A stretch of 64,000 nucleotides of DNA from Shigella phage A2. Location of the stretch: the sequence record OP197928. One strand, 5' to 3'. The position numbers were made by a program, and so were the translations under genes. Within the stretch, counting starts at the first letter, position 1; each line of letters starts with the position of its first letter. Under the pieces are notes generated by a model. It was not told where the DNA came from. It made no database searches and saw nothing but the letters and a program-made list of their open reading frames with translations. Positions 60,401 through 62,734 of the stretch are shown here, one piece after another.

Positions 60401-61229
60401 CGATGGCGCAGCAACTGTTAACGGCGATTGGAATAGTAAGCGTCCTTTCGCAATTAACTTAACAACCGGTGAAGTGCTAATGAATAACGGTATAGCTGTT
60501 CGCAGCGCTGCTTTATTCTATAATAGCATAAACGTCAAAGATAATGGTTCTATTAACTTTGATAAATCAGGCGCTAACCCTAGAAATATGAGAATATTTC
60601 ATGCTGGCGATGCTTCTCGCGGTAACCGTATTGAAATTGCCGATGAAACTAACTATATTGCTTACTTTGAAAAAGCTCCAGGTGGAGCTAACCGCTTTGT
60701 AGTAAATAATGCTACTGTGGCTGGTGTTAATCAAATGAATTCATTTGGTATTAACATCAATAACGCACTTGGTGGAAACAGTATAGCATTTGGTGATAAT
60801 GACACGGGTATTAAGCAAAACGGCGATGGATTATTAGACATTTATGCGAATGGTGTGCAAACGTTCCGTTTCCAAAACGGTGATTTGTACTCATATAAAA
60901 ATATAAATGCCCCAAACGTTTATATTCGTTCTGATATTCGCTTAAAATCTAATTTCAAACCTATCGAAAATGCACTTGATAAAGTTGAAAAACTCAATGG
61001 TGTCATTTATGATAAAGCTGAATACATCGGTGGAGAGGCAATTGAAACTGAAGCGGGTATTGTGGCTCAAACGTTACAAGACGTTTTACCAGAAGCTGTC
61101 CGTGAAACAGAAGACAGCAAGGGTAATAAAATACTCACTGTTTCTTCTCAAGCCCAGATTGCTCTTCTGGTTGAAGCTGTGAAAACACTTTCTTCTCGTG
61201 TAAAAGAACTTGAATCTAAACTTATGTAA
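57447..61229 (+). CDS. 37: Long tail fibre distal subunit gp37 (T2-type, with C-terminal intramolecular chaperone domain)
   Basis: 1260 aa (T4 gp37 is about 1026); N-terminal part T4-like; C-terminus carries SDIRLK autoproteolysis motif and coiled-coil tail. Confidence 0.93.
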   Translation: MATLKQIQFKRSKTAGQRPAASVLAEGELAINLKDRTLFTKDDSGNIIDLSITAGGNISGNITQTGDYTQTGKFNLIGPQIVASGGYIEFNYRTTGSGAWSGQHTAKAPIFVDLSSATSTSEYNPIIKQRFKDGTFSLGTLVSEGSLKIHYIDETGQSKYWTFARSGNFQVDSGNLLVSGGYLVAQSNIETRTGSLIGPSVVTKNISFDTKAFGQYDSQSLVQYVYPGTGETNGINYLRKFRAKSGGTIYHELASAQTGKSDELSWWTGNTAVNKQMGLRNDGSLVLRRSLAIGTITTDENINNYGSTGAMGECYIVIGDAATGVSYKRSGVYDLVANGLSIASITPDSFRSTRKALFGRSEDQGGTWTMPGTNAAFLSVQTQADENSAGDGQTHIGYNSGGKMNHYFRGKGKTNINTQEGMEVNPGILKIVTGANNVMFYADGGITSTKQLSIYNGVYLAANNSTAGLTFAPTTTIDGTKQILWEGGKRAGQNKSYVTVKAWGNSFNASGDRNRETVFEVADGQGYYFYSQRVAPSGSETTGPVVTQFAGAVNARGSIITDGSFKVNGLSTLVGNVTMSNGLFVQGGSSVTGQVKIGGTADALRIWNAEYGAIFRRSESNLYIIPTPKDAGESGGISNLRPLIIELNTGTVKMSHDVHLGDSGSGTGLLQVSNSLKTIKMICPVTINERNAALTLDSPSSSSANYLQGSKAGTRSWYVGLGGAGNDLSLYSQSYGHGLVISDNFVSITKPFKVGNAQLGTDGNITNGSGNFANLNTTLNRKVNSGFITYGATAGWYKFATVTMPQSTSTVFFKIAGGSGFNSGLFTQCNIAEIVLRTSNERPADLNAVLYTRTIGSAFKDIAVNNVSGDTYDIYVSAGTYCNQLTCEWTCTENATVSVIGINSSTQSPVDALPDTAVNGQVANVLNNLVDRGKVKRYEADSEIAINNQTGIRIRSNGDKTGSIATMLRNDGGSFYILFTDKNATDGAATVNGDWNSKRPFAINLTTGEVLMNNGIAVRSAALFYNSINVKDNGSINFDKSGANPRNMRIFHAGDASRGNRIEIADETNYIAYFEKAPGGANRFVVNNATVAGVNQMNSFGININNALGGNSIAFGDNDTGIKQNGDGLLDIYANGVQTFRFQNGDLYSYKNINAPNVYIRSDIRLKSNFKPIENALDKVEKLNGVIYDKAEYIGGEAIETEAGIVAQTLQDVLPEAVRETEDSKGNKILTVSSQAQIALLVEAVKTLSSRVKELESKLM

Positions 61230-61230
61230 A

Positions 61231-61256
61231 AGAGGGCTTCGGCCCTCTAAGGATTT
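61231..61256 (+). terminator. Hairpin after gene 37 (AGAGGGC-UUCG-GCCCUCU) with downstream U-run
   Basis: 7-bp stem, UUCG tetraloop, then AAGGATTTTTA containing the gene 38 SD; probably attenuating. Confidence 0.5.
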
Positions 61257-61259
61257 TTA

Positions 61260-62045
61260 ATGGCAATTGTAGGTGTTCCTGGCTGGATTGGTGAATCTGC
61301 CGTGAATGAAACTGGACAACGTTGGATGGATGCTGCAATGAGAGCAGTCCGTGTTTCAGTTCCCGGTTGGATGAGCTCAATGGCCGGACAATCTAAAGAA
61401 GTATATTATAGCATTGGTGCTAGTAATTCTTATAATAAAGATACATTAATAAACTGGATAAAAGCACAAGGGTCCACGCCTGTTGTTATTACTATTACAG
61501 GAAATATTGTTTCTCAATCTACTGGTGTTCCATGCTTAGATTTTCCTAGCTCATTAACTAATGCATACGTGACACTTAATATCAATTCAGGCGTGCATGT
61601 TTGGGGCCGTGGTGGGAATGGCGGAAATAACTCTGCCGGTAGAGCAGGAGGAACTGCAATAAATAATGGAATTGGAACTAGATTGCGTATTAACAACAAT
61701 GGTGTTATCGCAGGAGGCGGTGGCGGCGGTGGAGGCGGATATTATTCTCCTTTTTCACAAATGAAATTGACTTTTGGCGGTGGCGGCGGTCGTCCATTTG
61801 GTGCTGCTGGCGGGTCTGCTAATATGGAACAGGGCGCTACTGCTGGTACTATTTCTGCACCTGGTAAAGGGTCTGTCAATGGTATCTATAATGGCGGGAA
61901 TGGCGGTGATGCTGGTGCCGCAGGTGGTAAATGTAATATTCGTGGGCAAGGATCAGAATATAACGGCGGCGCGGCTGGTAAAGCTGTTACTGGTAATGCT
62001 CCAACTTGGACTAAGGTTGGTACAATATATGGTTCAAGAGTATAA
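61260..62045 (+). CDS. 38: Receptor-recognising adhesin gp38 (T2-type, glycine-rich motifs)
   Basis: 261 aa; conserved N-terminal gp37-attachment region followed by several Gly-rich motifs separated by variable segments. Confidence 0.85.
   Translation: MAIVGVPGWIGESAVNETGQRWMDAAMRAVRVSVPGWMSSMAGQSKEVYYSIGASNSYNKDTLINWIKAQGSTPVVITITGNIVSQSTGVPCLDFPSSLTNAYVTLNINSGVHVWGRGGNGGNNSAGRAGGTAINNGIGTRLRINNNGVIAGGGGGGGGGYYSPFSQMKLTFGGGGGRPFGAAGGSANMEQGATAGTISAPGKGSVNGIYNGGNGGDAGAAGGKCNIRGQGSEYNGGAAGKAVTGNAPTWTKVGTIYGSRV
61713..61739 (+). repeat. Nine consecutive glycine codons (GGA GGC GGT GGC GGC GGT GGA GGC GGA) inside gene 38
   Basis: Direct reading of codons in the gene 38 frame; second G5 tract at 61774..61797. 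Confidence 0.9.
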
Positions 62046-62077
62046 TTTTTGAATAAATATCCTTAAAAGGAGGGTCT

Positions 62078-62734
62078 ATGGCAGCACCTAGAATATCATT
62101 TTCGCCCTCTGATATTCTATTTGGTGTTCTAGATCGCTTGTTCAAAGATAACGCTACCGGGAAAGTTCTTGCTTCCCGGGTAGCTGTCGTAATTCTTTTA
62201 TTTATGATGGCGATTGTTTGGTATAGGGGAGATAGTTTCTTTGAGTACTATAAGCAATCAAAGTATGAAACATACAGTGAAATTATTGAAAAGGAAAGAA
62301 ATGCACGCTTTGAATCTGTCGCCCTGGAACAACTCCAGATAGTTCATATATCATCTGAGGCAGACTTTAGTGCGGTGTATTCTTTCCGCCCTAAAAACTT
62401 AAACTATTTTGTTGATATTATAGCATATGAAGGAAAATTACCTTCAACAATAAGTGAAAAATCACTTGGAGGATATCCTGTTGATAAAACTATGGATGAA
62501 TATGCAGTTCATTTAAATGGACGTCATTATTATTCCAACTCAAAATTTGCTTTTTTACCAACTAAAAAGCCTACTCCCGAAATAAACTACATGTACAGTT
62601 GTCCATATTTTAATTTGGATAATATCTATGCTGGAACGATAACCATGTACTGGTATAGAAATGATCATATAAGTAATGACCGCCTTGAATCAATATGTGC
62701 TCAGGCGGCCAGAATATTAGGAAGGGCTAAATAA
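62078..62734 (+). CDS. t: Holin T
   Basis: 218 aa; single N-terminal TM segment and large periplasmic domain; T4 holin size. Confidence 0.95.
   Translation: MAAPRISFSPSDILFGVLDRLFKDNATGKVLASRVAVVILLFMMAIVWYRGDSFFEYYKQSKYETYSEIIEKERNARFESVALEQLQIVHISSEADFSAVYSFRPKNLNYFVDIIAYEGKLPSTISEKSLGGYPVDKTMDEYAVHLNGRHYYSNSKFAFLPTKKPTPEINYMYSCPYFNLDNIYAGTITMYWYRNDHISNDRLESICAQAARILGRAK

Follow-up and report, generated by a model that had tools for sequence, protein, structure and literature searches.

The window analysed here, 64,000 nucleotides of Shigella phage A2 (sequence record OP197928), contains a long-tail-fibre locus with the canonical gene order g37-g38-t, in which g37 carries an S74 domain (Table 1). 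Gene 38 starts with an ATG codon, and its product has exactly the sequence of the database protein UVD36934.1, 'receptor recognizing protein [Shigella phage A2]'. The spacer between g37 and g38 holds a hairpin with a perfect 7-bp stem and a TTCG loop, followed by the Shine-Dalgarno sequence of g38, and the hairpin is identical in phages JK38 and Sf25. This predicted structure could either make expression of g38 lower than that of g37 or stabilise the transcript of g37. Downstream of g38, the sequence AATAAATA at 62052-62059, 18 nt upstream of the start of the holin gene t, is one mismatch away from the T4 late-promoter consensus TATAAATA. As a side observation on the neighbouring gene, g37 of JK38 (L002:478-4969) is divided in the annotation into two overlapping CDS, which points to either a frameshift or a split made in annotating.

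Table 1. Coordinates of features at the g37-g38-t locus (GRM, glycine-rich motif; HVS, hypervariable segment; positions are those of the window)
Feature	Position	Strand	Basis or remark
Gene 37, distal long-tail-fibre subunit, 1260 aa	57447..61229	+	Pfam
Peptidase_S74 intramolecular chaperone domain of gp37, aa 1162-1219	60930-61103	+	Pfam
Intergenic hairpin AGAGGGC-TTCG-GCCCTCT, g37/g38	61231..61248	+	Terminator-like score
Shine-Dalgarno sequence of g38, AAGGA	61249-61253		
Gene 38, long-tail-fibre tip adhesin gp38, 261 aa + stop codon	61260..62045	+	ORF, Pfam, PDB match
N-terminal attachment domain, aa 1-42, T2/Bas43 subtype	61260..61385	+	Pfam Gp38_N
GRM1 (GRGGNGG), aa 116-122	61605..61625	+	At least 90% conserved in 111 full-length homologues
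HVS1 and conserved RLRINNNG strand, aa 123-151	61626..61712	+	Conservation profile; contains the G128R codon
R128 codon, AGA	61641-61643		
GRM2, nine Gly codons, aa 152-160	61713..61739	+	Mixed GGA/GGC/GGT
HVS2 (YYSPFSQMKLTF), aa 161-172, T6/Tsx type	61740..61775	+	Segment identities
GRM3 (GGGGGRPFGAAG), aa 173-184	61776..61811	+	Bears the second copy of the 15-nt repeat D1
Second (G5) Gly tract	61776..61790		
HVS3, aa 185-210, T6/Tsx type	61812..61889	+	Segment identities
GRM4 (NGGNGGDAGAAGG), aa 211-223	61890..61928	+	Shares direct repeat D2 with GRM1
HVS4 (KCNIRGQGSEYN), aa 224-235, T6/Tsx type	61929..61964	+	Segment identities
GRM5 and conserved C-terminus, aa 236-261, Bas43/T2 subtype	61965..62042	+	Segment identities
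Direct repeat D1, two copies	61716-61730 and 61776-61790		Exact, 15 nt
Direct repeat D2, two copies	61610-61624 and 61892-61906		In GRM1 and GRM4
First segment of the identity comparison	61260-61706		DNA identity: Bas43 88%, Bas35 (T6 type) 55%
Second segment of the identity comparison	61707-61964		DNA identity: Bas43 61%, Bas35 (T6 type) 81%
Third segment of the identity comparison	61965-62045		DNA identity: Bas43 about 93% (92.6%), Bas35 (T6 type) about 78% (77.8%)
Gene t (holin T)	62078..62734	+	Pfam Phage_holin_T 5.9e-117

The first-pass annotation, made from the sequence alone, had proposed that gp38 is the adhesin form of the protein, with glycine-rich motifs, and Pfam, the sequence matches in the PDB, the predicted fold and the conservation profile all agree with this. 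The Pfam family GP38 (PF05268) matches with a score of 246.3 bits against a cut-off of 25 (4.1e-73; profile positions 1-218 of 218), Gp38_N (PF21721) matches aa 1-42 with 64.6 bits against the same cut-off (8.2e-18), and the Pfam search returned no family beyond these two. The sequence matches in the PDB are 6f45_D of phage S16 (4e-49) and 9v85, the receptor-binding domain of PP01 (2e-33). An AlphaFold2 model computed with 58 homologues as input reached a pLDDT of 92.6 and a pTM of 0.86, and a Foldseek search with it gave significant scores for 6f45_D (E 1e-21, TM 0.80/0.84) and 9v85_C (TM 0.73/0.85) only. The predicted model matches the fold of the solved gp38 adhesins, namely a beta-helix and a polyglycine-II sandwich with distal loops. 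The product of gene 38 is a T2/T6-type gp38 long-tail-fibre adhesin of a Tequatrovirus; as such it is an ordinary gene of a kind already described.

Close relatives of the gene are numerous, with 195 matching records in the phage collection. Among the matches listed, nucleotide identity is 99.5% to JK1, 99.4% to JK38 and QOTSP, and 98.7% to FriedrichMiescher (Bas39), teqhal and teqsoen. Over 25 kb, the flanking genome is at best about 96% identical to any record in the collection, and therefore the Tequatrovirus itself was not found there. No publication on Shigella phage A2 turned up in a literature search; PMC9686686 covers other Shigella phages.

Mosaic structure of gene 38

The layout of gp38 was defined from an alignment of 120 database representatives together with reference adhesins, with conservation computed over 111 full-length homologues. 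It consists of five conserved glycine-rich motifs, whose order is fixed, with four hypervariable segments between them, and the open reading frame and all five motifs quoted in the first-pass annotation are indeed present in the translation of 61260..62045. Glycine makes up 48 of the 146 residues of aa 116-261 (33%), compared with 11 of the 115 N-terminal residues.

Different parts of the gene resemble different relatives. Over aa 1-115, gp38 is 97% identical to Bas43, 77% to T2 and 47% to T6, and the first ~100 nt of the gene are 89-98% identical to T2. GRM5 and the C-terminus are 100% identical to both Bas43 and FL18, 85% to T2 and 73% to T6. The points at which identity switches between the Bas43 type and the T6 type, as represented by Bas35 at the DNA level, fall in GRM2 and at GRM5. 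Judged by this pattern of identities, gene 38 is a recombinant, in which an attachment domain and C-terminus of T2/Bas43 type surround a cassette of T6 type that runs from GRM2 to HVS4. Tétart in 1998 and Trojet in 2011 reportedly placed crossovers in gp38 within the glycine-rich motifs. It is documented that specificity cassettes are exchanged at conserved motifs (PMC3157838), and gene 38 is a clean example of this known rule.

The partner protein gp37 is ~98% identical to Bas39 gp37 over 1260 aa. Its last 85 aa differ from T2 gp37 by one residue and are unrelated to the tail of Bas35, which is of T6 type. The subtype of the attachment domain is known to pair with the subtype of the gp37 C-terminus in a lock-and-key manner (PMC3157838), and the subtypes of the gene 38 attachment domain and of the gp37 tail match this published pairing.

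A separate observation concerns the same docking module in another T4-like lineage (L010:1767-2279, L013:3656-4168), where a short gp38 is directly followed by a second ORF of 170 aa. The second ORF has a Gp38_N attachment domain and a C-terminal part without glycine-rich motifs, which suggests that the lineage has two alternative tip proteins with one common docking module.

The alignment also contains about 10 shorter proteins among the 120 gp38 representatives, at whose junctions two Gly-rich stretches meet (P0041, P0102, P0011, P0070, P0090, P0091, P0109, P0116, P0117 and P0120). A comparison of three of them at the DNA level gave a gap of exactly 282 nt in P0041 (L009:3001-3504), between GRM1 and GRM4, which is the spacing of repeat D2; a gap of exactly 60 nt in P0102 (L012:2501-3217), between GRM2 and GRM3; and a gap of 75 nt in P0011 (L011:318-1022), which reaches from GRM2 to where GRM3 ends. 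The deletions in these variants from public assemblies are in frame. Exact repeats reach at most 13-17 nt in the four gp38 genes examined, so that a collapse during assembly is an unlikely cause, the repeats being too short. The short variants, which come mostly from automated Logan assemblies, may represent defective genomes, functional short adhesins or artefacts. Engineered deletions of GRMs and HVSs in T6 yielded no viable phage (PMC3157838), and the short variants are therefore more likely to be defective than to be new host-range forms. The contig with P0102 also encodes a gp37 of only 477 aa (L012:1033-2466), which suggests a large internal deletion or a repeat collapse in that gene. 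The first-pass annotation had named recombination as a route to host-range change, and both the mosaic pattern and the deletion variants support recombination between GRMs, which is already in the literature (PMC3157838).

Predicted receptor and residue R128

The first-pass annotation had further suggested that the variable segments would identify the receptor, and had recommended aligning them with characterised gp38 adhesins. That alignment places them in the T6/Tsx type. HVS2, HVS3 and HVS4 are each 100% identical to those of JK38 and Bas39, two phages that depend on Tsx: Tsx is the primary receptor of Bas39 in the BASEL supplementary table (PMC8594841), and JK38 was assigned Tsx/Kdo by RB-TnSeq (bioRxiv 10.64898/2026.04.02.716166). 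In the same order, the three segments are 83%, 77% and 83% identical to those of T6, which uses Tsx, and 92%, 77% and 92% identical to those of Bas35, another Tsx phage. Identities are low to the adhesins of other specificities, at 0%, 18% and 0% to T2 (FadL), 8%, 15% and 8% to RB51 (OmpF), 7%, 30% and 25% to M1 (OmpA), and 0%, 27% and 8% to S16 (OmpC). The earlier label 'T2-type' thus fits gp38 in its architecture, its attachment domain and its gp37 partner; the specificity cassette, however, is of T6 type.

Because the set of HVS loops is that of T6, Tsx is predicted to be the primary receptor. Three published observations bear on how such a prediction can be made: one HVS set is common to nearly all Tsx-binding gp38 proteins (PMC3157838), the receptor is predictable from gp38 phylogeny (PMC12032242), and specificity switched to another porin when the part of gp38 that begins with HVS2 was replaced (bioRxiv 10.64898/2026.04.02.716166). 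From sequence comparison, then, the nucleoside channel Tsx is most likely the primary receptor. The prediction is useful for the design of phage cocktails, where resistance through loss of tsx can be anticipated; otherwise it adds little beyond annotation.

The one feature that sets gp38 apart from the JK38 and Bas39 proteins is residue 128. The proteins are identical at 260 of 261 residues, and the sole difference is G128R. Each of the 12 other full-length proteins in the 90% cluster has G at this position, and none of the 111 representatives besides gene 38 has Arg. Position 128 is naturally variable among homologues (A, S, G, Q, E and others). R128 aligns with S127 of PP01 gp38, three residues past loop-A (W119-I124; PMC12892980), which is a putative receptor loop of PP01, and by alignment to the PP01 loop definitions the residue would be located on a polyglycine strand.

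An alternative to the simple Tsx prediction is that G128R has shifted or broadened specificity, through the addition of OmpA or LPS or toward a Shigella variant of Tsx, with the consequence that Tsx is not the sole or main receptor. The uniqueness of R128 among the 111 representatives and the 12 other cluster members fits such a change, as do its alignment close to PP01 loop-A and the fact that the host in the deposited record is Shigella. There are also precedents for single gp38 changes with large effects, since Q206L in HVS3 can switch the receptor (bioRxiv 10.64898/2026.04.02.716166) and other single-residue changes can extend receptor use (PMC3157838). However, these documented specificity-changing substitutions lie in HVS2 and HVS3, elsewhere than position 128; the position tolerates many residues in natural homologues; and HVS2-4, which cassette swaps show to set the choice of porin, are identical to those of Tsx-dependent phages. 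We consider this alternative unlikely. A narrower proposition is that G128R gives gp38 an altered or wider receptor use than that of the otherwise identical Tsx adhesins in JK38 and Bas39, which might for instance adapt the phage to surface proteins of Shigella. We give it only a slim chance; were it true, G128R would count as a host-range switch by one natural substitution, located in HVS1 and not in HVS2 or HVS3.

Length constancy of the glycine tracts

The first-pass annotation had drawn attention to a tract of nine Gly codons and a second, G5 tract, which it called homopolymeric and regarded as prone to slippage. Both tracts are present, the first at exactly 61713..61739. They are homopolymeric as protein; as DNA they are not, being built of mixed codons (GGA GGC GGT GGC GGC GGT GGA GGC GGA in the nine-codon tract) with no GGG. 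GGG accounts for 0 of the 14 codons in the two tracts, compared with 6 of the 45 Gly codons elsewhere in the gene. The longest G run in gene 38 is 4 nt, at 61603, outside both tracts, and the tracts contain no perfect tandem DNA repeat or mononucleotide run. Tandem Repeats Finder reports a weak array of period 9 (2.9 copies, 88% matches) with a score of 45, below its default threshold of 50. The two tracts have the exact direct repeat D1 in common, its copies lying 60 nt apart and in frame. When the Gly codons were shuffled, a repeat of at least 15 nt was reached in 78 of 2000 shuffles; D1 is only marginally longer than the coding of polyglycine yields by chance.

The lengths of the tracts and of the motifs around them are nearly invariant. 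Among the phage genes listed, all 29 with at least 90% nucleotide identity span 786 nt, and all 12 of the other full-length members of the 90% cluster have both G9 and G5. No length polymorphism of the Gly tracts was found in the phage records, in the 90% identity cluster or among the 111 representatives. In the reference adhesins, the G runs differ in that A, S or V takes the place of G inside a block of fixed length. Of the 111 homologues, 107 have a block of 20 residues at aa 141-160, 105 have a GRM3 of 12 residues and 109 have a GRM4 of 13, so that GRM block lengths are constant in 95-98% of the set. The lengths of the HVSs, on the other hand, range widely among homologues, from 0 to 15 residues for HVS2, 15 to 36 for HVS3 and 7 to 40 for HVS4. 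The GRMs of solved adhesins are polyglycine-II helices of a sandwich from which variable loops project (PMC12892980; PMC12032242), and the constant GRM lengths fit this structural role.

These observations bear on the idea that the Gly-codon tracts are slippage-prone contingency sequences, whose frequent changes in length would alter host range. The weak period-9 array and the 15-nt repeat common to both tracts are what such a mechanism would draw on. However, the codons are mixed, the gene and tract lengths are fixed among close relatives, differences in the G runs arise by substitution, a repeat such as D1 turns up in codon shuffles, the motifs are structural helices, and GRM deletions engineered in T6 gave no viable phage. 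Slippage is therefore largely refuted as a source of host-range change, and we judge it highly improbable; the glycine-rich motifs are structurally constant in length rather than hypermutable.

A candidate for a natural deletion in a Gly tract was rejected. Gene 38 matches Shigella phage Sf25 (MF327009; L001:1501-2210) in two pieces, but the 103-nt gap between them is in the N-terminal half of the gene and has no end in a Gly tract. In that record g38 is annotated as two CDS; the gap is out of frame, and a second deletion fuses the end of g38 to the holin gene. The Sf25 gene reflects either sequence errors in the record or a defective locus.

Proposed mechanism and comparison with known adhesins

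Taken together, we think it very probable that gene 38 encodes a Tsx-type gp38 adhesin of recombinant origin, in which loops rather than slippage in Gly tracts drive host range. A plausible mechanism can be modelled on the homologues in S16, T2 and T6. The distal subunit gp37 would trimerise with the aid of its C-terminal S74 chaperone domain, which would then be cut off. One gp38 would use its N-terminal attachment domain to dock on the tip of the fibre, with a stoichiometry of 1:3, and we infer from the same three phages that gp38 is probably present in the virion. Docking of the attachment domain onto the gp37 tip has been described (PMC3157838; S16 structure as described in PMC12892980). 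The glycine-rich motifs would pack into a polyglycine-II sandwich, which would serve as a rigid scaffold of constant length, and the hypervariable segments would form distal loops that bind the extracellular loops of an outer-membrane protein. Because the specificity cassette has recombined at glycine-rich motifs, host range would be expected to change through cassette exchange and through point substitutions in the loops, rather than through slippage in the Gly tracts.

The reading that gene 38 instead encodes a gp38 of the T4 type, which acts as a chaperone in gp37 assembly and is not part of the virion, has virtually no probability and is already refuted: it has in its favour the common gene name and position alone, and the annotation 'distal long tail fiber assembly catalyst' that several records of close homologues still carry, whereas the adhesin families GP38 and Gp38_N alone match the protein, it is predicted to fold like the S16 and PP01 adhesins, and gp37 has its own S74 chaperone domain, as in T2. 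T4 gp38 is an unrelated protein without glycine-rich motifs, and is absent from the virion (PMC3157838). Although it has the same gene name and the same position downstream of g37, its sequence is unrelated to that of gene 38, with no match in the Pfam search.

The recombinant, Tsx-type adhesin proposed for gene 38 can be compared with several characterised proteins. The gp38 of the Salmonella phage S16 (6F45 chain D) and the receptor-binding domain of gp38 of the E. coli O157 phage PP01 (9V85) have the same fold as the model, with TM of 0.80-0.85, at a sequence identity of 42-43%. Both 9V85 and S16 have been described as a beta-helix domain and a polyglycine-II sandwich with protruding receptor loops, and 6F45 has gp38 on the gp37 tip. 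OmpC is the receptor of both the S16 and the PP01 protein, and in loop sequence both are unrelated to gene 38 (compared here for S16).

T2 gp38, an adhesin for FadL/OmpF, has the same subtype of attachment domain and the same GRM scaffold as gene 38, but its HVS2-4 are unrelated, and a receptor other than that of T2 is therefore expected. The reverse holds for T6 gp38, a Tsx adhesin (P0037), which has the same HVS set, and GRM2 and GRM3 that are 90-92% identical; its attachment domain, however, is of the other subtype (47% over aa 1-115), and so is its C-terminus (73%).

Finally, the closest characterised relatives are the gp38 proteins of Escherichia phage Bas39 and Shigella phage JK38, which have the same length, all HVSs reported as identical save for G128R in HVS1, and the same g37-g38-t context. 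The genome around the gene is only about 95-96% identical to theirs over 25 kb. The Tsx dependence of Bas39 and JK38 was shown by experiment, whereas for gene 38 the receptor is a prediction.
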